From a bacterium (GTDB taxonomy: Bacteria > Patescibacteriota > Microgenomatia > Levybacterales > UBA12049): a stretch of 64,000 bases of DNA. The position numbers and the translations under genes are program-made. Position 1 is the stretch's first letter; each line of letters opens with the position of its first letter. This document shows positions 2,554-63,599 of the stretch, in pieces. The DNA lies in contig JAJYDJ010000003.1 in assembly GCA_021777565.1 (NCBI GenBank), forward strand, positions 65,001 to 129,000, written 5' to 3'. The notes under the pieces were generated by a model, which worked only from the letters and a program-made list of their open reading frames with translations, did not search any database and was not told where the DNA came from.

Positions 2554-5388
2554 ATGTGGTGTAAAAACGATAGTTATAGATTCAAAAGAATGTATTCCAC
2601 ACAAAAAGGCAGATCCCCTACATATACATGTAAAATACTTTTTGTTATGATACATATGCTTTTATCTTCTGCCCTCAAAAGTATATATATGTCACCTATC
2701 CCTCACTGTATTATTAAAGTAGAATTGATTCAGAATACTCCTGTCTTCTCTTGTTATACTCTTCCTCACATCTCTTTTATTTCGTTTACTCCTATTTTTT
2801 ATCTCACACTTCATAGTGTAATTTTCATCTGTTCTGTGTTGTTATTTCTTCTCTGTCTTCGTGGTTTCATACAAATGAAAAGACAATTATCTGAAACACA
2901 TGTACTCCTTGAAATAATACCCCCTTCAGATACTAAGCAGACAACACTTACTACAGAACAATTTATGACAAATTTGCATAGTATCGGACAAAATAGATCA
3001 TGGTTTGATAAATTAGTTGGGAAGAAAAATATTTTTTCTCTTGAGCTTATTGCTACGAAAGAAAAAGGAATACGTTACGTGTTAGGTGTGCCAAAAGAAA
3101 TTGTTCCTATCATCAAAAGACAAGTACTCTCATTCTTAAAAGGAGCCACCATAACAGATACTGATGATTCCCTTCAGAGTATCAACAAACCTACCCATGG
3201 GATGATACGAGAACTTACGTTTCAGAGTCATTATGTATACTCTTTGCAAGAGCAATCATCACTTTCTCAGTATGATCCAATTGCATATATGACAGGGCAC
3301 ATGACAAGGCTTGGAGAGCATGAGACAATACTTCTACAAATAGTTATTACCCCAGTTACAAAGAGTTCTCACTGGTCAATATATACCTTCATTCAAAAAA
3401 CTATTCATAGAATTGAGCTTGGAGAAGACGTATCTGAAAACATAAAGAGTCATCATTCACTCTCTGCCACTATCCTTATGACTCTGCTCCTCTCTGTACC
3501 ATTTATACTCTTCGCACCTTATACGATCATTTCTCAGATTCTCCGTCCTACGAAAGATGGTAACTTTTTTCCCCTATGGCTATATACAGGCGAGAAGAAA
3601 AATCCTATGGACAGACTTACTCCTGAGAAACAGGAAATACAAAGAGATATCGCTCACAAATTGCAAAAAGAACTTTTTGAAACAACAATAAGAATTTACA
3701 GTTCCCACGAAGACCGACAAGGACAAAAGGAACGAATGCAAGGCATTCTGTCATCCTTTCAACCACTTCATACTCACTTGCAAAGGTTACATACAAAGTT
3801 TTCAATCGATGCCACGCAGTGGATTCAAGAATTCTTCCTCATGCATAGAATACTTGCGTTCAAGGGTAATCCTATTCTTTCAGTTTCAGAACTCGCAAAT
3901 CTGTATCACTTTCCATATACGCCAATCACACATACAGAAGATTTAGTGCAAAGCAAAAATCAAGAACTTCCTGTACCACTTTCTCTCAAAAATAGTACTG
4001 ACCTTGCTATTACTTTTGCTACGAATTCCTATGGGGGAATACCAACATCAATTGGACAAGATGCAAACCAAAGAAGAAAGCACACATATATTATTGGGGG
4101 TACTGGTACTGGAAAGACAACGCTTCTTTATACAATGATTATGCAAGATATTATAGCAGGACATGGAATCAATGTGACCGATCCACATGGTGATCTTATA
4201 CAGAAGATCTTGCAAACCATACCAGAAAATCGACAAGATGATGTTGTTCTTTTTGACCCTGACGATACTGAACATCCCTGTGGTTTTAATATTTTAGAGA
4301 TGCCCCAAGTACTTTCCAAGGAAGAAATGGAAAAGTATAAGGACCAACTCTGTGGTATCTTGATTGCTACTTTTCAAAAACTATTTCCTTCACGAGTAAA
4401 CGCCTATCGTATGGAACATATTTTGCGACAGGCGATTTTGACTGTACTTGAGACAGAAAGTCCAACACTTTTTACCATACAGAAGCTACTTACGGATTAC
4501 AAATATAGAAAGAGTGTTGTTGAACAACTCACTGATCCTATTTTAATTAATTTCTGGAAAAAAGAATTCGCTTCAATGGGATCCATGCAGAGAGCAGATG
4601 CTACTTCACCAATCACAACACGCCTCGGTGAATTCTTTGCGTCACATATGGCACGAAACATCCTACTCCAAAAACATACTACTATTGATTTCACGGATAT
4701 TATGAATAATAAAAAGATATTACTTTGTGATCTTTCGAAAGGGAAAATTACTGAAAGCATGAGCTCTTTCTTTGGTGCATTGATTACCGCGCAAATCGAA
4801 ATTACTGCACAACAGAGAGCACGACTACAAGAAAAGGATCGTGTAGATTTCTATGTGTATATTGATGAATTCCAAAATTTTGCCACACCAAGCTTTGCGC
4901 AAATGATGGGAGAATCACGAAAATATCGATTAAATACGATTCTTGCCCATCAGACGATCGCACAGATTGAAGATACAAATTTCATAGATATCGTTCTTGC
5001 AAATACTGGTACAGTTATTTCATTTCATACAGGGAGTCCGAGAGATGAGAGATATCTCCTACCATTCTTCGTACCAGAAGTGCTACCAGGACAGTTGAAT
5101 TCACTGCCACCCTATCACTTTTACATAAAAATCTCCAACAGCACCCCAGCTACCGTCTTTACTGGACAAACCGAGATTCTTATTTACCCTGAGAATCAAG
5201 AAAGAGCAAACAGTATCAGAGAACTTTCAAGAAACAAGTACACAAAGCAGAAATCAGAGATAGAAAGAGAAATAGTAACATTGCTCGAAGATAATGTTTC
5301 AGAAAAGAATACTGCTGATGCACAAGATCAGCTACAAAAAGCAAAAGAGTATCACTTAAAAGATGGAGGTTCTCATGAAAAGAAGTAA
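2554..5388 (+). CDS. type IV secretion coupling-protein-like ATPase (VirD4/TraG/TraD family); start uncertain
   Basis: Walker A is YIIGGTGTGKTT. Walker B is FYVYIDEFQNF. Also present are DPHGD and FDPDD...HPCGFNILE, as in TraG/TraD coupling proteins. There are N-terminal hydrophobic segments. An alternative start lies at ATG 2875 (MKRQLSE...). Confidence 0.7.
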   Translation: MWCKNDSYRFKRMYSTQKGRSPTYTCKILFVMIHMLLSSALKSIYMSPIPHCIIKVELIQNTPVFSCYTLPHISFISFTPIFYLTLHSVIFICSVLLFLLCLRGFIQMKRQLSETHVLLEIIPPSDTKQTTLTTEQFMTNLHSIGQNRSWFDKLVGKKNIFSLELIATKEKGIRYVLGVPKEIVPIIKRQVLSFLKGATITDTDDSLQSINKPTHGMIRELTFQSHYVYSLQEQSSLSQYDPIAYMTGHMTRLGEHETILLQIVITPVTKSSHWSIYTFIQKTIHRIELGEDVSENIKSHHSLSATILMTLLLSVPFILFAPYTIISQILRPTKDGNFFPLWLYTGEKKNPMDRLTPEKQEIQRDIAHKLQKELFETTIRIYSSHEDRQGQKERMQGILSSFQPLHTHLQRLHTKFSIDATQWIQEFFLMHRILAFKGNPILSVSELANLYHFPYTPITHTEDLVQSKNQELPVPLSLKNSTDLAITFATNSYGGIPTSIGQDANQRRKHTYIIGGTGTGKTTLLYTMIMQDIIAGHGINVTDPHGDLIQKILQTIPENRQDDVVLFDPDDTEHPCGFNILEMPQVLSKEEMEKYKDQLCGILIATFQKLFPSRVNAYRMEHILRQAILTVLETESPTLFTIQKLLTDYKYRKSVVEQLTDPILINFWKKEFASMGSMQRADATSPITTRLGEFFASHMARNILLQKHTTIDFTDIMNNKKILLCDLSKGKITESMSSFFGALITAQIEITAQQRARLQEKDRVDFYVYIDEFQNFATPSFAQMMGESRKYRLNTILAHQTIAQIEDTNFIDIVLANTGTVISFHTGSPRDERYLLPFFVPEVLPGQLNSLPPYHFYIKISNSTPATVFTGQTEILIYPENQERANSIRELSRNKYTKQKSEIEREIVTLLEDNVSEKNTADAQDQLQKAKEYHLKDGGSHEKK

Positions 5389-6148
5389 TGTATACATACA
5401 TAACGTTACCCCAGAACAACAGAAAATACTTTGTTGGCTAGCACTATTTACTATACTCACAAAAAAACATATGCAGAAATTGCTCAGACATAAAGATCAT
5501 AAATGGGTATCTGTCTGCATATCCAGACTACAAGCAGATGGATATGTGAAGGAAGTGCCCTTCACATTTGGAAGAACGAAAATTTTTGCATTATCAACCA
5601 AAGGAATGCTACTAGTAAAACGTATAAACACAACAGATACACAGCACAAGCAAATTGCTAAAAATATCTCATTTGCACAGATTGATCGTTTCTTGTGTAT
5701 TGCAGACGTATATGTACAACTCAATGAAAATAGTAAAGATACACTTTCATTTATCGCTAAGGCAAATCTCTCACGCGAAAGTAAAATAATAACACCGGAT
5801 GCATATCTAACATATACAGAAAGTACTCGAATAAAGACATATTTCCTTGAATTAGATAGAGAAACACAAAGCATGAATCCTATGGAAAAGAAACTTGAAA
5901 GATATTCACAGTACTTTTACTCAAAACAATGGAAAAGAATAACGCCAGACCACTTTCCAGCTGTTTGTATCATATGTTTCACACAAGAAAGAAAAAGGAA
6001 TTTGATGAATTTAGCAGAAGACCTATTTAATACGTCTCACTTCGCTCCTATTGTGTTTAAATTTACTACGCTAGATGAAATAAACAATGGTACACAAAAA
6101 GATATCTGCCTTGTTCCGTTCGAAAAAAAATTATATCCTATCCTATAG
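5363..6148 (+). CDS. hypothetical protein, possibly winged-helix / replication-relaxation-like
   Basis: 261-aa ORF that overlaps the end of the coupling-protein gene, suggesting an operon. The N-terminal region looks like wHTH. It has the size and position of the replication-relaxation family proteins of Gram-positive conjugative elements, but the family assignment is tentative. Confidence 0.4.
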   Translation: MEVLMKRSNVYIHNVTPEQQKILCWLALFTILTKKHMQKLLRHKDHKWVSVCISRLQADGYVKEVPFTFGRTKIFALSTKGMLLVKRINTTDTQHKQIAKNISFAQIDRFLCIADVYVQLNENSKDTLSFIAKANLSRESKIITPDAYLTYTESTRIKTYFLELDRETQSMNPMEKKLERYSQYFYSKQWKRITPDHFPAVCIICFTQERKRNLMNLAEDLFNTSHFAPIVFKFTTLDEINNGTQKDICLVPFEKKLYPIL

Positions 6149-6249
6149 GTAAATATACATCTGGATGTTAGATGTGCCAGTTTTGTTTTAATAATATTTA
6201 ACTATAATCTCAGTATAAAGTGGCGATAAGAATATATGTAGGTCAAAAA

Positions 6250-6278
6250 CTGACAACAATACACTTTTAGTGTATAAT
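6250..6278 (+). promoter_or_regulatory. sigma70-like promoter for the cargo operon (CTGACA-17 nt-TATAAT)
   Basis: The -35 element CTGACA is at 6250-6255. A 17-nt spacer contains the palindrome ACACTTTTAGTGT. The -10 element TATAAT is at 6273-6278. A second TATAAT lies near 6320. Confidence 0.45.
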
Positions 6279-6364
6279 ACCTTTTCAAGAACAAAGATCT
6301 ACCTAGAAACTCAGCTGGGAGTATAATTGAGATGACAATTTAGATATACGTTCTTAATAAATAT

Positions 6365-57437: not shown

Positions 57438-58601
57438 ATGGCACGTAAAAAAATTACTGAGTTTCGCGCAAAGTCTCTTTTGATCCCCAATTATCAGGGC
57501 ATACGAATCACTCCTGACAGCGATATTTCTAAGGAAGTCGCCAAACTCCAGGATACCCAGACGTATGTCGTGAAGATCGATCACGGAGTGAAAAAACGCA
57601 TGAAACAAGGGCTTATTCTTCTAGATATAAAAAGGGATGCAGTACCAGATGCCATTGAGACATTGAAAGCAAAAGGATATACGAACTTTCTCATTGAACC
57701 ATTCCTTCGCTATAACCCCACAGAAGAAAGATATCTCAGTTTGCAGCGAGTGAGAGACGGGATCATGATCCTTTATGCGCCACAAGGTGGTATCGAGATA
57801 GAGGATCGCCCAGAAAGTCTTATCGCAGAGACTATCCATGCTCCCCAAGAGCTCGCAGCATTCGCAGAGAAGACTGGCCTTACACCCTCACTTTTACAAA
57901 CTATCTATGAAGAATTTGAAGAAAATTACTATGCATTTTTTGAGATAAACCCACTAGTCCTTCATGATGGCAAGTTCCTTCCATTAGATATCGCCTGTGA
58001 AGTCGATGATGCGGCAGAACTTCTCGTCCATCACCGATGGAGTGCTGATGATTTTCCTATCATGACAGCAAAGACTGAAGAGGAAGAAAATATTGATATC
58101 CTTAAAACTAAAAGTGCTGCATCATTTTCATTTGTGCCACTTAATTTAAATGGTAGTATCTTTATGCTCCTCTCTGGAGGAGGAGTAAGTATTGTCCTTG
58201 CAGATGAAGTATATAATTTAGGATATGGAAAAGAATTGGCAAATTATGGAGAATACAGTGGAAATCCCAATGCAGAAGAGACATATTTATATACAAAAAA
58301 TGTATTACAACTTTTACTCAAATCAACCGCTACAAAAAAAGTTTTACTTATTGGCGGCGGGGTAGCAAATTTCACTGATATCGCCAAAACATTTACCGGA
58401 GTCATTCATGCGCTCAGTGAAGTAGCTGATCAGATGCAACAACAACATGTTACTGTATTTGTTCGTCGAGGAGGACCCAATCAGGCAGAAGGGCTTGCCA
58501 AGATGCATAATTTTCTACAAGAAAATAATTTACTTGGCGCCGTGTGTGGACCAGACACACCGCTACCAGATATCGTTGCCCAAATGGTCAAAACAATATG
58601 A
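57438..58601 (+). CDS. ATP-citrate lyase small subunit-like protein (ATP-grasp, AclB/SucC-like)
   Basis: The protein is 387 aa. The ATP-grasp N-terminus resembles succinyl-CoA synthetase beta / ACL. It is translationally coupled (ATGA) to the next gene. Confidence 0.55.
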   Translation: MARKKITEFRAKSLLIPNYQGIRITPDSDISKEVAKLQDTQTYVVKIDHGVKKRMKQGLILLDIKRDAVPDAIETLKAKGYTNFLIEPFLRYNPTEERYLSLQRVRDGIMILYAPQGGIEIEDRPESLIAETIHAPQELAAFAEKTGLTPSLLQTIYEEFEENYYAFFEINPLVLHDGKFLPLDIACEVDDAAELLVHHRWSADDFPIMTAKTEEEENIDILKTKSAASFSFVPLNLNGSIFMLLSGGGVSIVLADEVYNLGYGKELANYGEYSGNPNAEETYLYTKNVLQLLLKSTATKKVLLIGGGVANFTDIAKTFTGVIHALSEVADQMQQQHVTVFVRRGGPNQAEGLAKMHNFLQENNLLGAVCGPDTPLPDIVAQMVKTI

Positions 58602-60382
58602 TCGATATACAAACATTACGAAATACTCCTCACACGATTATTGCAATTGGGACGTACCCTGCGATTATCCAAGCCATGATTGATTTCGATTTTCTCTCAG
58701 GCAAAGATAAACCAAGTATTGCTCTTATCCTTGCAGAAGGACGTAACCACGAGCGGTACTTCTGGGGCAAAGAAGAAATTCTTATTCCTGTCGTTCATGA
58801 AGTCCATAGTATCCCAGATTCACTGCAAAAACAGATAACATTCTTTGTCAATTTTTCCTCAGGCAGACGAACCAAAGACACAACTCTTGAGATTCTTGAT
58901 GCACTTCCCGGGCTTATCGGCGGTGCACTTTTTGCAGAGAAAGTACCTGAGAAACATAGTCTTCGTATGTATGCACATGCCAAGAAGTTAGGAAAGTTCA
59001 TTGTCGGACCCGCAAGTATTGGGTTGTTACTCCCAGGGAGTGTAAAACTTGGAGCCATTGGAGGTACTGATGCACGGCAGCTTATCAGTGCTGACGTATT
59101 CCAGAGAGGATCTGTTGCTGTCCTTTCAGCATCAGGGGGCATGACAAATGAGCTTATTAATGCCGTCACCAGAAGTAACAAGCGCATCTCATTTTCTCTT
59201 GCCTTTGGTGGAGAAAGATTCCCCGTGACGACTCCAACCGAAGCGTTCTTGGCAGCAGAAAAAGATCTAGAGACCAAAACCATCATTTATTTTGGTGAAC
59301 TTGGCGGAAGCGATGAATACGATCTTGCACAACTCATGCAGTCTGGTAGTATTACCAAACCAATCCTCTGCTACATCGCAGGCAGCGTTGCTGAGATGTT
59401 TGATACTCCTCCACAGTTTGGTCACGCAAAGGCACTCGCTCAGTCCAAAGACGAAACCGCACGTGGGAAAAGAGACATGCTTGAAAAAGCCGGCGCACAG
59501 GTTGCAGAGTCTTTTACCGAGTTTCTTTCAATGATCAATGCGCTCCCTGTCGATCAATTTGAAGAAAAATCATATGCGCATGCCCTGCAACTTTTTGCGT
59601 CCCGACATGAGGCATTGATTACTTCTTCTATATCCGGCGATGCCAACGGCGTCACCGGATTGCTGCATGAAGATTTACTTTCTTTCGTGCAAAAGAGATC
59701 ATTTGCCGGAATTGTTTGTTCACTTTTCTTAGGAAGAAATGAGGTCTCACCTGAACTAGAAGAGTTTGTCGATTTTGTCCTGAGATTATTGGTTGATCAT
59801 GGACCAAATGTAAGTGGTGCTATGAATACGATCGTTACGGCTCGTGCAGGACGTGATATTGTTTCGTCTCTTGTTTCAGGACTGCTGACTATTGGTCCTC
59901 GTTTTGGTGGCGCTATCAATCAGGCTGCAGAAAACCTTTTATTAGGCGTCACCACCGGACAAGACGCCGCAGATTTTGTAGAATCATTTGCATCCACCAG
60001 ACAATACATTGCTGGCATTGGTCATAAAAAATATCGTAGTGATCTTCCTGATCCACGGGTAAAGGCACTGAAAGCATTTGGCGAGAAGTTGGAACAAAAA
60101 CGTTTCCTGCAATACGCACTCGCGATTGAAAAAATTACAACCCAAAAGAAAGGGAATCTTATTCTCAATGTTGATGGCGCAATTGCTGCAATACTCCTTG
60201 ATATCCTTTCTGAAAAAGAGCATTATAGTGATCAAGAATTACAAACTCTCGTTGAAAGTGAATTCTTCAATGCCTTCTTTATTCTTTCCCGATCGGTCGG
60301 ATTTTTGGCACATTTCCTTGATCAAAAGCGCATTGATGAGGGCATATTTAGGCTTCCTGATGATTTGATTCTTCACATCTAA
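58598..60382 (+). CDS. ATP-citrate lyase large subunit-like protein (CoA-binding/ligase domains + citrate-synthase-like C-terminal domain)
   Basis: The N-terminus has a CoA-binding Rossmann fold. A phosphohistidine-loop-like FGHAKAL is present. C-terminal GHKKYRSDLPDPRV resembles the citrate synthase GHRVYK..DPR motif. The size, 594 aa from the 58598 start (612 aa for the full ORF), matches AclA. Confidence 0.55.
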   Translation: MIDIQTLRNTPHTIIAIGTYPAIIQAMIDFDFLSGKDKPSIALILAEGRNHERYFWGKEEILIPVVHEVHSIPDSLQKQITFFVNFSSGRRTKDTTLEILDALPGLIGGALFAEKVPEKHSLRMYAHAKKLGKFIVGPASIGLLLPGSVKLGAIGGTDARQLISADVFQRGSVAVLSASGGMTNELINAVTRSNKRISFSLAFGGERFPVTTPTEAFLAAEKDLETKTIIYFGELGGSDEYDLAQLMQSGSITKPILCYIAGSVAEMFDTPPQFGHAKALAQSKDETARGKRDMLEKAGAQVAESFTEFLSMINALPVDQFEEKSYAHALQLFASRHEALITSSISGDANGVTGLLHEDLLSFVQKRSFAGIVCSLFLGRNEVSPELEEFVDFVLRLLVDHGPNVSGAMNTIVTARAGRDIVSSLVSGLLTIGPRFGGAINQAAENLLLGVTTGQDAADFVESFASTRQYIAGIGHKKYRSDLPDPRVKALKAFGEKLEQKRFLQYALAIEKITTQKKGNLILNVDGAIAAILLDILSEKEHYSDQELQTLVESEFFNAFFILSRSVGFLAHFLDQKRIDEGIFRLPDDLILHI

Positions 60383-60383
60383 T

Positions 60384-60605
60384 TTATTTCTCAGCGAAAT
60401 TCACTTGATGTTTTCTTTGTAAAAGGTCGCGGGCTATAGATTGTAATTCCTTCACCATTTGGATTTGTACCTCACCTCGTACTTTTTCAATTTGAAACGT
60501 ATTGGCCGCGTAAAAAATGTGAAGTAATACTTCAACATCTTTCCCTTTGGCGATACGGTAGGTCGCTTTTTCAAACAAAAATGTATCAATATATGTTACC
60601 TTCAT
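60384..60605 (-). CDS. hypothetical protein
   Basis: 73-aa ORF with no recognisable motif. Confidence 0.3.
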   Translation of the reverse strand: MKVTYIDTFLFEKATYRIAKGKDVEVLLHIFYAANTFQIEKVRGEVQIQMVKELQSIARDLLQRKHQVNFAEK

Positions 60606-60758
60606 GCGCTCTCACCTCACTTATTACAAAACAATTCTGCTTTGCAGGAAGGTTTATTCTTGAAGCTAAAAGAAGCGACGTTTCTGCAAACCAACTATTT
60701 CAGTGGTTTGCGACAACAAGATAAATTGCAAAAATTCATACTCTGATAATATCCTGTC

Positions 60759-60897
60759 TTGACGTTTCTGACAAGCACGATATAATACAAGTACCTATGA
60801 CATACGTTTTCTCTGCAAAAAAGTCAAACAAGAAGAACCTCTAACGAGGGCTTGTTTGCATGAATAAAAACAACGCCCTCCCCAGGAGGGTTTTTTT
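60759..60897 (+). promoter_or_regulatory. promoter + Lys-codon-rich leader peptide + terminator/antiterminator: candidate translation-coupled attenuator for lysK
   Basis: TTGACG is at 60759-64, followed by a 16-nt spacer and TATAAT at 60781-86. The mini-ORF 60797-60844 encodes MTYVFSAKKSNKKNL, with 4 Lys codons in 15. GAGGGC at 60846-51 is complementary to GCCCTC at 60875-80. That GCCCTC overlaps the 5' arm of the terminator hairpin (CCCTCC at 60876-81 pairing with GGAGGG at 60885-90), which is followed by a T7 tract. Confidence 0.4.
60875..60897 (+). terminator. intrinsic terminator (GC stem + T7 tract) upstream of lysK
   Basis: CCCTCC-cca-GGAGGG is followed by TTTTTTT at 60891-97. It is not usable in the reverse orientation because the opposite strand has no U-tract after the stem. 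Confidence 0.55.
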
Positions 60898-60926
60898 GTA
60901 GGGTAGAAAAGACGTATAATAGATAT

Positions 60927-62447
60927 ATGAAATACTGGTCAGACACATTAGCTGAAAAATTAAAAGAGAGGCACTTACCTCTGGAGGGTGTCGATGATAT
61001 GAAAACACCATCTGGTCGTGTGCACATGGGGGCGCTTCGAGGGCTGGTTATCCACGATCTCGTATATAAATCACTCCAACAAGCAGACGTACCTACGCGA
61101 TATACCTATGTATATGACGACCATGATCCTATGGATGGATTCCCAGTTTACCTTCCAGAAGAGTTTAAACAATACATGGGTATGCCACTCTACCAAATTC
61201 CTTCTCCTGGTCCAGGAGCAGAAAATTTTGCCCAATATTTTGCCAACGAATTTACAGAAGTTTTTAACAAGATCGGATGTCATCCAGAAATTATTTGGGC
61301 ATCCAAACTCTATGAAGACGGCAAAATGAATGATCTGATCCGTGTCGCTCTCGACCATGCTGATGATATACGCGAAATCTATGAAAAAATGTATAAAAAA
61401 GAGATTGCTAAACCATGGTATCCATACCAGCCGTATTGTCCACAATGTAAAAAAGTTGCGACAACTACAGTTACTGATTGGGATGGCGAACAAATTACAT
61501 TTACCTGTGAAGTGAATAAAGTAAACTGGACACAAGGGTGTGGATACACAGGGAAAATGTCGCCGTTTAGTCATGGTACCGTCGTTGGAAAATTACCATG
61601 GAAAATTGAATGGCCGGCAGTCTGGAAAGTTATTGGAGTAACTGTTGAGGGAGCGGGGAAAGACCATATGTCAGCTGGTGGTTCACACGACGTCGCCAAA
61701 CAAATTTCTGAGAAAGTCTTCCACTACGAAACACCATACCCTATTGCTTATGAGTGGTTTAATATTGGGGGCAAAAAAATGTCCAGTTCTAAAGGAGTTG
61801 GGACATCAGCTGCCGAAATGTTAGAGCTCCTCCCACCAGAATTGGTACGTTTCTTGATGGTACGAACTGACTACAATAAAGCAATTAATTTTGATCCATT
61901 TGGGGATACAATTCCAGCACTTTTTGATGAATATCAACGAGCTGCTCAGGCATATACTGACAAAAGCGATGAACTTCTTGCCCGTATGTTTGAGTTGTCA
62001 CAAATTAATGGCGTACATATGCCACCAAAACTCAGATTCTCAGTCATCGCTCAGCTGGTACAAATGCCAAATATGAAAGACTACATTGCATCAGAGGGTC
62101 TGGAATCTTGGGCGCACTATGCACGCAATTGGGTTGAAAAATATGCGCCAGAAGATGAAAAATTTAGTATCCAAGAAAGTCTGCCAGAAGCAGCAAAAAA
62201 TCTCACAACAACACAAAAAGAATTGCTTGCACGTATTGCAAAAGAACTGGATACAGACTGGGAAGCAGAAAAATTACAATTTGAAATCTATGAATGGGGC
62301 AAAGCGATGGGGATGTCAGGGAAAGAAGTATTTAGTGCAATCTATACAGCACTTATCGGCAAAGATCACGGGCCGAAAGCAGCATGGCTTATTCTTTCAC
62401 TTGAAAAAAACTTTGTACAAAAAAGATTTGAAGAAGCCGCGAAATAA
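60927..62447 (+). CDS. lysK: lysine--tRNA ligase, class I
   Basis: The N-terminal TPSGRVHMG is the class I LysRS HIGH-region variant. KMSSSKG is the KMSKS motif. The protein is 506 aa. TATAAT at 60913-18 lies only 8 nt before the ATG, so the mRNA may be leaderless. Confidence 0.9.
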   Translation: MKYWSDTLAEKLKERHLPLEGVDDMKTPSGRVHMGALRGLVIHDLVYKSLQQADVPTRYTYVYDDHDPMDGFPVYLPEEFKQYMGMPLYQIPSPGPGAENFAQYFANEFTEVFNKIGCHPEIIWASKLYEDGKMNDLIRVALDHADDIREIYEKMYKKEIAKPWYPYQPYCPQCKKVATTTVTDWDGEQITFTCEVNKVNWTQGCGYTGKMSPFSHGTVVGKLPWKIEWPAVWKVIGVTVEGAGKDHMSAGGSHDVAKQISEKVFHYETPYPIAYEWFNIGGKKMSSSKGVGTSAAEMLELLPPELVRFLMVRTDYNKAINFDPFGDTIPALFDEYQRAAQAYTDKSDELLARMFELSQINGVHMPPKLRFSVIAQLVQMPNMKDYIASEGLESWAHYARNWVEKYAPEDEKFSIQESLPEAAKNLTTTQKELLARIAKELDTDWEAEKLQFEIYEWGKAMGMSGKEVFSAIYTALIGKDHGPKAAWLILSLEKNFVQKRFEEAAK

Positions 62448-62450
62448 GAT

Positions 62451-63599
62451 TTATCTATTTATTGATATCCCGCGCTGTTGCAGAAACTCCTCATGAGCTG
62501 TAACAAAATCTTTTCCATAAAGCATTGCTGCAGTCATGTGGACTCTCCAAGCATCGATGTCATCCATCGTCTGCAGTACTTCCAATGTTGTTCTGTATAC
62601 TTCCTGTGATATAGCAATATGTCTTCCTACCACATCTGATCCCCTGTAATTATCTGAGGCAAGGAGATGATAATAGACATCTCCTATAAGTCCTTGCCAC
62701 AATTCTAAATCAGTAAGGGTGTCTTCTCGAGGCCGCATAGTAAATCTATCATGAAAGGAAAATGGAAATTCTCGACCTCCCACCAGATCTCTATCTCTTT
62801 CTACCGAGACGCTATATCCCTCTGCTGCGAGCATGTCACCAATAGGTTCATGTGCCATCCCGCGACGAACCACAACGGCATAAATATTTGGATTCTCTCC
62901 AACAAGAGTGGTAAGACGTCGTACTAAGAGAGTATCTCTATCGAACACATTCTCGCGTGCCAGATCAAGACTACTGCGATACAGCCCGAAAGCTTCATCA
63001 AAATTTCCTGTAGCGAGATTTTGATATGACATTTTTTCTTGCCAACCAAAAAGATTTGAGACAGTTCTCTTTTCTCTTCTTCCAGCTACAAACGGATCCT
63101 CTTCCTCAACTTCCCCCCTATTACTTGCGATAATTTCATCAGTATTCCCTTCAACAACTAAAAGCAATCTCCCACCATGCATTTCGTATAAATTCGTAAG
63201 AATTGCTATTGCCTGTGCTATTTCTGGATTTGTATGCACTGTATAGGCTCGTAGAGCGTTTCTATAATTAAGCGTATTTCCTCTTGCATCCTCTGGTGTC
63301 ACATGTTGTGTTGCACAAACGAATGCCTGCAGTGGTGTAAGTGGAGTTTCCCTGTGTAGTCCTTGTGCGCTCAAACGGGTTACCTCATCGGCGACTTCTT
63401 GTGTCATGTCTGCCATCTCTAGAACAGCAGCAACAGCCATAGGAGCTCCCTCTGGCGTACGCATATCCTCGCTTTCTCTCAAGCGTCGTGCTACTTGATC
63501 TCTCAGCTGAGTGATCCCCTCAGAATGATACGTTGGACCAAGGTCATGCACCATCGAGGAAATATCAAAGAATGGCCCTTGTTGTTCAGAATTCGACAT
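62451..63599 (-). CDS. hypothetical protein
   Basis: 382-aa ORF with no motif recognised. It is somewhat GC-richer than its surroundings. Confidence 0.45.
   Translation of the reverse strand: MSNSEQQGPFFDISSMVHDLGPTYHSEGITQLRDQVARRLRESEDMRTPEGAPMAVAAVLEMADMTQEVADEVTRLSAQGLHRETPLTPLQAFVCATQHVTPEDARGNTLNYRNALRAYTVHTNPEIAQAIAILTNLYEMHGGRLLLVVEGNTDEIIASNRGEVEEEDPFVAGRREKRTVSNLFGWQEKMSYQNLATGNFDEAFGLYRSSLDLARENVFDRDTLLVRRLTTLVGENPNIYAVVVRRGMAHEPIGDMLAAEGYSVSVERDRDLVGGREFPFSFHDRFTMRPREDTLTDLELWQGLIGDVYYHLLASDNYRGSDVVGRHIAISQEVYRTTLEVLQTMDDIDAWRVHMTAAMLYGKDFVTAHEEFLQQRGISINR

Follow-up and report, generated by a model that had tools for sequence, protein, structure and literature searches.

The window analysed here is a 64,000-nucleotide stretch of contig JAJYDJ010000003.1 from a bacterium of the Candidate Phyla Radiation (CPR), and our subject is an element of about 100 nucleotides (nt) that lies upstream of lysK, the gene for a class I lysyl-tRNA synthetase (LysRS; 60927..62447, plus strand; Pfam PF01921 tRNA-synt_1f). 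On the same strand, promoter P1 (-35 TTGACG at 60759-64, 16-nt spacer, -10 TATAAT at 60781-86) matches the consensus at 11/12 positions. The ATG of a leader open reading frame (ORF), MTYVFSAKKSNKKNL, lies 10 nt past the P1 -10 box at 60797, and the ORF runs for 15 codons to a TAA stop at 60842-44 (60797..60844, plus strand). It has no Shine-Dalgarno sequence and a predicted 5' untranslated region of about 3 nt. Its four lysine codons form two pairs, AAA AAG at 60818..60823 and AAG AAG at 60830..60835, the second of which is the conserved regulatory pair described below.

Four segments of the leader RNA can pair with one another in alternative ways. Region 1 (CAAGAAGAACCUC, ~60829..60841) is one arm of a 1:2 'protector' hairpin with region 2 (GAGGGCUUGUUUG, 60846..60858), which is also the 5' arm of an antiterminator. 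Region 2 begins with GAGGGC (60846-51), complementary to GCCCTC (60875-80) within region 3 (AAACAACGCCCUCC, 60868..60881); the antiterminator 3' arm (60868-80) overlaps the 5' arm of a terminator, CCCTCC (60876-81). Region 4 (60885..60897) supplies the terminator 3' arm GGAGGG (60885-90) and a U-tract at 60891-97 (T7). RNA spanning 60793-60900 folds at -31.7 kcal/mol (z = -3.75), and the antiterminator hairpin (60846-60880; segment -19.4 kcal/mol) contains 12 pairs between 60846-57 and 60868-80. A second -10 box, TATAAT at 60915..60920 (promoter P2, plus strand), precedes the lysK ATG by 6 nt, so that lysK mRNA made from it is predicted to be leaderless.

The first-pass annotation of this DNA had described P1, the leader ORF and its stop, the GAGGGC/GCCCTC pair, the terminator with T7 and lysK, and had placed four Lys codons within 60818-60835; all proved exact on direct reading of the sequence. 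To that description we add the 1:2 hairpin, which completes a four-segment 1:2 / 2:3 / 3:4 attenuator, and the second TATAAT next to lysK. A consensus scan found four terminator-like sites, this one included, against 0.7 expected from shuffles, and three promoter-like sites against 2.6 expected. The P1 match by itself is therefore not above chance, and it is the conservation of the whole architecture in 36 other distinct sequences, not the single sequence, that marks the element as more than chance.

A family of related elements

LysK homologues are found in Patescibacteria, mostly in Levybacteria, and the nearest LysK relative is only 67% identical. A LysK single-protein scan of genome contigs returned no match. 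Three further contigs from this organism show no difference in their upstream sequence (100% identity) and are thus uninformative, so the comparison had to use more distant relatives, and we assembled 80 related lysK loci by a profile-based scan of GTDB species representatives. An nhmmer search with the window leader revealed relatives of it lying 30-2000 nt ahead of lysK and on its strand, and iteration brought the number of related lysK loci with the element to 22 of 80. A covariance model (R1) recovered the same 22 loci and gave a single match in the 64-kb window, the element itself. A pattern scan without the lysK requirement, filtered by covariance model, added at least 17 further metagenome copies in 15 contigs. 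The metagenome pattern had matched 112 stretches, of which 80 were taken as loci; about 65 of these were set aside as chance matches lacking a terminator or a covariance-model score. In one metagenome contig (L151, 784-1143) the pattern matched five times in tandem at ~75-80 nt spacing; this repeat array gave no covariance-model match and has no relation to the attenuator. The family comprises 37 distinct element sequences: the window copy, those of the 22 lysK loci and 14 from the further metagenome copies.

Across the family, a sigma-70-like promoter with at least 9/12 consensus matches precedes 25/36 homologous elements, and in 22 of these 25 the gap from the end of its -10 box to the mini-ORF ATG is 7-16 nt. 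No convincing Shine-Dalgarno sequence precedes the mini-ORF in any family member checked for promoters. An ATG-initiated ORF in the Lys-Lys frame is present in 35/37 elements; one of the other two (L113) starts with GTG, as read by eye, and one is cut by a contig end. A mini-ORF in this frame thus exists in 36/36 evaluable homologues, and the first-pass annotation, which had named lack of conservation of the mini-ORF or its Lys codons in relatives as grounds for abandoning its attenuation reading, is upheld on both counts. In 35/35, no stop interrupts frame 0 from the ATG to the Lys pair; the other frames are open over this stretch in only 2/35 and 6/35.

Lysine occupies both anchor positions in 34/34 anchored peptides, encoded by AAG or AAA only; the element in L056 has just one Lys. 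The claim of a conserved Lys cluster therefore needs dividing: the pair at 60830-35 is universally conserved, but the upstream pair is frequent without being universal, extra Lys being enriched at positions -3 (15/34) and -2 (10/34). The Lys pair is followed by N in 17/34, L in 22/34 and S in 24/34, and the consensus reads M-x8-10-[S/T/A]-K-K-N-L-S-stop; N-terminal residues are unconserved. Leader ORFs range from 13 to 27 codons. A stop stands immediately after a KKNLS-type ending in 15/33, KKNLS-stop being the commonest ending and 15 residues a common length in this short class. In a long class, translation continues through region 2 and ends ...RGFVLA-stop.

The Asn codon that follows the Lys pair in 17/34 leaders is AAC (60836-60838 in the window). 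It may be fixed simply by helix 1:2, in which AACC pairs with GGUU. The conserved KK-N motif might also mean that the element senses Lys and Asn together.

Folding of each member defined the common geometry. Region 1 consists of the Lys codons and the codons that follow (AAGAAGAACCnCUC), region 2 is GAGGGGUUcUUU, region 3 ends in CCCCUC, and region 4 is GAGGGG followed by U6; the distance from region 1 to the U-tract is ~75 nt, within an overall length of ~100 nt. Per-sequence energies of 36 members, scored against shuffles, gave a median of -14 kcal/mol for the 1:2 hairpin (z < -2 in 89%; window -10.9 kcal/mol, z = -3.5), -16.3 kcal/mol for the 2:3 antiterminator (z < -2 in 97%; window -15.9 kcal/mol, z = -5.1) and -10.2 kcal/mol for the 3:4 terminator (z < -2 in 100%; window -9.0 kcal/mol, z = -3.9). 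The 2:3 hairpin is stabler than 3:4 in 35/36 members.

Both MAFFT alignments (A3, A4) and covariance-model-fitted alignments (A6, A8) retain a 1-nt register shift between two subclasses, so that column counts understate pairing and the figures for 2:3 covariation are conservative. Even so counted, 2:3 covariation is 0.239, compared with 0.169 +/- 0.014 in shuffles (0/500 as high) and at most 0.175 in slid controls. In the model-fitted alignment of 37 sequences, 74.5% of cells of the 2:3 helix are paired, and in the extension of this helix both sides change in 6/7 pairs. On the 1:2 segment, RNAalifold found only 3 invariant pairs owing to the 1-nt register shifts. Because this column-based fold failed, we relied on per-sequence energies and on an alignment-free arm-swap test, in which a sequence's own arms pair better than swapped ones in each of the three helices (z = -4.3 for 1:2, and -7.9 and -8.9; 0/5000 permutations as good). 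In the window, the family's GAGGGG/CCCCUC is replaced by GAGGGC/GCCCUC, a compensated change, and the terminator there has moved in register so that six pairs are kept.

The sole long loop, of 15-60 nt, is conserved neither in sequence nor in length, and the idea that the RNA mimics tRNA for LysRS binding was dropped because of this. Past the U-tract, most members share a conserved AGUGG / UGUGG (GGGGUUUUUUAGUgg; alignment A8, columns 105-113 and just after), which termination alone does not explain.

The genes downstream of the element link it to lysine. Aspartokinase is directly downstream in L039, L042 and L016, an ornithine/diaminopimelate (DAP) decarboxylase in L033, and M20 peptidases in L072 and L013. 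In L121 the order is dapL, attenuator, lysA, lysK. Two contigs carry two copies each, one ahead of biosynthesis genes and one ahead of lysK: L148 reads attenuator, aspartokinase, dapB, dapA, asd, second attenuator, a 354-amino-acid (aa) ORF and lysK, and L131 reads attenuator, lysA-like gene, dapF, second attenuator, a 92-aa ORF and lysK. The second copy in L131 (reverse-complement 5345-6323) has no separate mini-ORF, its leader being the C-terminus of DapF itself, ...FVIKGNKKNLS-stop. A ribosome finishing dapF would here do the sensing for the downstream genes, lysK included. Occurrence before lysC-dapB-dapA-asd, lysA, dapF and lysK ties the element to lysine and identifies it as a cis-element of the lysine regulon.

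lysK is the only gene found consistently downstream across the family, and the ORFs that intervene are heterogeneous. In L048, as in the window, the attenuator directly precedes lysK. The other ORFs between attenuator and lysK are small, lack Pfam matches and fall into unrelated small groups; a common partner gene at this position was accordingly discarded as an explanation. ORFs of 141-245 aa lie there in L006, L040, L075 and L107 (e.g. MGEARMA...), and others in L031/L066 and L117/L125. These proteins without Pfam matches are possibly lysine-related.

Ribosome logic and competing explanations

The spacing of the element suits control by a translating ribosome. From the end of the second Lys codon to region 2 there are 10-12 nt in 33/36 members and 10 nt in the window; a distance of 10-12 nt is about the reach of the ribosome's leading edge from its A site. 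In short-class leaders no more than 2 nt separate the stop codon from region 2, and in long-class leaders the stop falls within region 2 or past it. The element combines the features by which trp-type attenuators are recognized: an ORF after a promoter, clustered cognate codons, mutually exclusive 2:3 and 3:4 helices, a 1:2 hairpin, appropriate spacing and pathway genes downstream. Masked folding, which the first-pass annotation had proposed as a check, bore out one half of the predicted switch. When the footprint of a ribosome at the stop is masked, 34/36 members have the terminator in their minimum-energy fold, so equilibrium folding supports termination upon completed translation, but with the footprint on the second Lys codon the antiterminator appears in only 21/36.

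From this architecture we propose the following sequence of events. A transcript would start at P1, and the 15-codon leader ORF close to its 5' end would be translated independently of a Shine-Dalgarno sequence. When Lys-tRNA is plentiful, the ribosome would reach the stop at 60842-44 and cover region 2, leaving region 3 free for region 4; the CCCUCC/GGAGGG terminator with U7 would then form and end transcription at ~60897. When Lys-tRNA is scarce, the ribosome would stall at 60830-35, on region 1 and just short of region 2. Region 2, left free, would pair with region 3 in the 12-bp antiterminator, which is stabler than the terminator, and RNA polymerase would continue into lysK. If no ribosome translated the leader, formation of 1:2 followed by 3:4 would again end transcription. 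P2 probably provides basal lysK expression, to which the attenuator would add expression under lysine starvation. What this scheme infers from the sequences is that the ORF is translated, that ribosomes stall on it, that termination is regulated and that read-through accounts for a share of LysRS synthesis. We consider it probable, with good though not complete confidence, that the element is a ribosome-mediated, trp-type transcription attenuator sensing charged tRNA-Lys. The first-pass annotation had reached the same interpretation, which is now supported by comparison with relatives rather than by experiment.

Several observations weigh against this interpretation. Only 2-4 Lys codons are present per leader, and Lys is common in AT-rich genomes. 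AAGAAG also lies within helix 1:2, where third-position A/G changes keep their pairing with U, so constraints on the RNA may contribute to the conservation of AAGAAG. If transcription starts ~7 nt after the -10 box, as we assume, the leader AUG is ~3 nt from the 5' end, not strictly 5'-terminal, and still has no Shine-Dalgarno sequence. In equilibrium folds, the response to a footprint on the second Lys codon is incomplete, as given above, and without a ribosome the RNA adopts nested 1:4 + 2:3 helices in 21/36 folds rather than 1:2 + 3:4. The fit of such folds is thus only partial, and the attenuation model depends on co-transcriptional kinetics. The shuffle and arm-swap statistics ignore relatedness among the sequences. 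By the column test the terminator stem is conserved in sequence, essentially invariant and without covariation; with an invariant stem, absence of covariation is neutral evidence. The element is absent within 2 kb in 58/80 related lysK loci, where the covariance model found no divergent copies. A heuristic scan of these 58 loci for a terminator with a KK mini-ORF yielded ordinary terminators only, such as those of greA in L055 and L058, and was discarded. Finally, lysK has a conserved proximal promoter of its own, P2, so in the window it may depend only slightly on attenuation.

Initiation without a Shine-Dalgarno sequence is a general property of these genes. A TAnA[AT]T box stands exactly 6 nt before the lysK ATG in 38/76 related loci and 6-9 nt before it in 59/76, and a Shine-Dalgarno-like motif precedes lysK in only 10/78. 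To judge from these sequences, lysK appears to be leaderless across the clade. In the window, few of the 51 long ORFs have a Shine-Dalgarno sequence, most internal genes also lack one, and a -10-like box stands 6-9 nt ahead of the start of several genes that come first in their operons (22540 and 28936 on the plus strand; 36367, 37275, 49930 and 63599 on the minus strand). This suggests that leaderless or Shine-Dalgarno-independent initiation is widespread in this CPR genome. Since such starts are normal in the lineage, the lack of a Shine-Dalgarno sequence before the mini-ORF is no objection to its translation; if translated, the mini-ORF must be read as a leaderless or near-leaderless mRNA. 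Internal starts of this kind are usual here too, so read-through transcripts are plausibly translated. Transcripts reading through from P1 probably serve as an inducible supplement rather than as the only source of lysK mRNA.

P2 also raises the strongest alternative, namely that the attenuator is real yet does not control lysK here. P2 would drive lysK, and the upstream unit would be an insulating terminator or a relic left after loss of an intervening lysine gene, or would yield a short transcript that serves some other purpose. The -10 box 6-9 nt before the lysK ATG in 59/76 loci fits this proposal, the more so as these include loci with the attenuator and other genes upstream. In most relatives, moreover, the gene directly after the attenuator has a strong GGAGGTG Shine-Dalgarno sequence; lysK has none, and on a read-through RNA its AUG would be internal. 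As set out above, though, internal genes without a Shine-Dalgarno sequence are the rule in this genome, so this is no barrier. The window copy is also intact: its promoter matches at 11/12 positions, its ORF is open and contains both Lys pairs, its three hairpins are significant, and a G/C change in it is compensated, all of which argues for ongoing selection. lysK is its sole possible target in cis, the neighbouring gene at 62451-63599 (minus strand) being convergent; the direct arrangement recurs in L048, and no gene other than lysK is consistently downstream in the family. We therefore regard control of some gene other than lysK, or of none, as unlikely.

A second alternative is an independent small gene, encoding a ~100-nt small RNA and/or a 15-residue micropeptide that acts in trans and is kept in place by synteny, with the alternative pairings a by-product of the GAGGGG/CCCCUC repeat. 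The unit does have its own promoter and terminator, and a precedent exists in Sinorhizobium meliloti trpL, whose terminated attenuator RNA and leader peptide have functions in trans (cited in PMC10117765). The peptide is nevertheless unconserved except for KK and the residues encoded by RNA stems, and a leader that is the C-terminus of DapF, as in L131, would make no sense for a micropeptide gene. Nor would this alternative account for a position always upstream of lysine genes and co-oriented with them, twice on the same contig in L131 and L148, or for covariation in favour of the 2:3 helix, which cannot coexist with the terminator. We hold it to be improbable.

Least probable of all is an untranslated RNA switch that senses lysine, LysRS or uncharged tRNA-Lys (in the manner of a miniature T-box with an AAG specifier) and contains the ORF by accident: lysine genes elsewhere do use riboswitches or, rarely, T-boxes (PMC2916919), and the position of AAGAAG in helix 1:2 with pairing-compatible A/G wobble changes would suit it, but no T-box or lysine riboswitch was matched in the window (E <= 10) or in 40 related loci (gathering score), the only long loop (15-60 nt) is unconserved and so offers no ligand pocket, and it would leave unexplained why the start codon keeps a set distance from the promoter and why its frame is open in all members while the other frames are closed.

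The surroundings of the element in the window were also inspected. A reading as the terminator of an upstream gene was dropped because a promoter intervenes and the upstream gene is divergent, and a reading as a minus-strand terminator was dropped because no minus-strand gene has its end there. The divergent gene (60384-60605, minus strand) is a 73-aa ORF without a Pfam match, preceded by a GAGGTGA Shine-Dalgarno sequence. A minus-strand promoter-like site directed at it (60746-60774; TTGTCA-17-TATTAT, 10/12) lies back to back with P1 and overlaps it, and the two may form a divergent promoter pair. On the other side, the minus-strand gene at 62451-63599 is a 382-aa ORF without a Pfam match whose end is 4 nt past the lysK stop. 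Further upstream, at 57438-60382 (plus strand), an adjacent gene pair carries ATP-citrate lyase/synthase domains (Citrate_synth_N + Citrate_bind; Ligase_CoA + Citrate_synt). Genes of this type are unexpected for a CPR bacterium of reduced metabolism.

Relation to known systems and significance

At gathering score, no Rfam family matched the window's element, nor any of 40 related loci, of which 20 carry the element and 20 lack it. In 60550-61000, neither the T-box (RF00230) nor the lysine riboswitch, or L-box (RF00168), matched even at E <= 10. Phe_leader (RF01859) alone among Rfam models scored on the element at all: it reached 17.7 bits (E = 2.2; gathering score 55), mostly from the terminator, and membership in that family was rejected as sub-threshold.

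In Escherichia coli trpL, segments pair as 1:2, 2:3 and 3:4, the leader has 14-15 residues and ends in WWRTS-stop, and the stop adjoins region 2. The element described here shares the four-segment geometry, the arrangement of two adjacent regulatory codons, three further codons and a stop (KKNLS-stop), and the stop codon next to region 2. Unlike trpL, it uses Lys rather than Trp codons, bears no sequence similarity to it, belongs to a CPR host, has no Shine-Dalgarno sequence, with the ORF within ~0-10 nt of the predicted transcript start, and targets lysK and genes of lysine and the DAP pathway. E. coli pheST, with its pheM leader, offers a parallel for the target: a leader-peptide attenuator acts there too on an aminoacyl-tRNA synthetase gene through cognate codons, although these are Phe codons and not Lys codons.

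Other systems control the same kinds of genes by different means. The L-box is a large five-helix RNA that binds free lysine. The regulon that it serves is of the same type (lysC, dap genes, lysA), and it likewise causes premature termination when lysine suffices, whereas the present element has only switch helices, an unconserved loop and a predicted translated ORF. The Bacillus cereus lysK T-box also governs a class I LysRS gene by antitermination, at low tRNA-Lys charging, and responds to tRNA-Asn as well (PMC2916919), which may be set beside the Asn codon after the Lys pair in 17/34 leaders; the T-box, however, senses uncharged tRNA by RNA-RNA contacts, free of the ribosome, in an RNA of more than 200 nt. 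The first-pass annotation had taken a T-box or L-box to be what one would normally expect on this gene. For the T-box this expectation does not hold, T-box control of LysRS being rare, with 4 species among 891 genomes (PMC2916919).

Sensing ORFs that are leaderless or nearly so have been described elsewhere. That of S. meliloti trpL controls its operon by supply of the cognate amino acid (PMC10117765), and mycobacterial poly-Cys short ORFs, likewise leaderless, are reported to act on downstream operon genes in a similar way (bioRxiv 10.1101/834739). These differ from the present family in sensing Trp and Cys, not Lys, and in belonging to other lineages. Our literature search, which was incomplete, turned up neither a lysine leader-peptide attenuator nor any attenuator described from CPR bacteria. 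The class of mechanism is classical, and the lysine-specific family is most likely undescribed so far.

Bacterial lysine genes are regulated by the L-box riboswitch and by protein regulators, and the classical list of leader-peptide attenuation comprises Trp, His, Phe, Leu, Thr, Ile/Val and Cys. A Lys-codon attenuator would add lysine to this list. We lean, by a modest balance, towards the broader proposal that the whole lysine regulon of Levybacteria-type CPR bacteria (DAP pathway, lysA and class I LysRS) is under an undescribed family of leaderless Lys-codon leader peptides. If true, this would be the first ribosome-mediated lysine attenuator, the first for a class I LysRS, and the first conserved cis-regulatory attenuator family reported in CPR bacteria. 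The covariance model could be used to annotate lysine regulons in metagenomes, and the ~100-nt element with its 37 natural variants is ready for in vitro transcription-translation or heterologous reporters.

To our knowledge, CPR bacteria cannot be grown alone, and their gene regulation is almost uncharted. Leaderless initiation as a dominant mode of the lineage is pointed to by lysK (59/76 loci), by the leader ORFs and by many genes of the window. The element would show that sensing coupled to the ribosome operates in CPR bacteria and, if the proposal is true, would imply tight coupling of transcription and translation, together with routine leaderless initiation by 70S ribosomes, in minimal cells.

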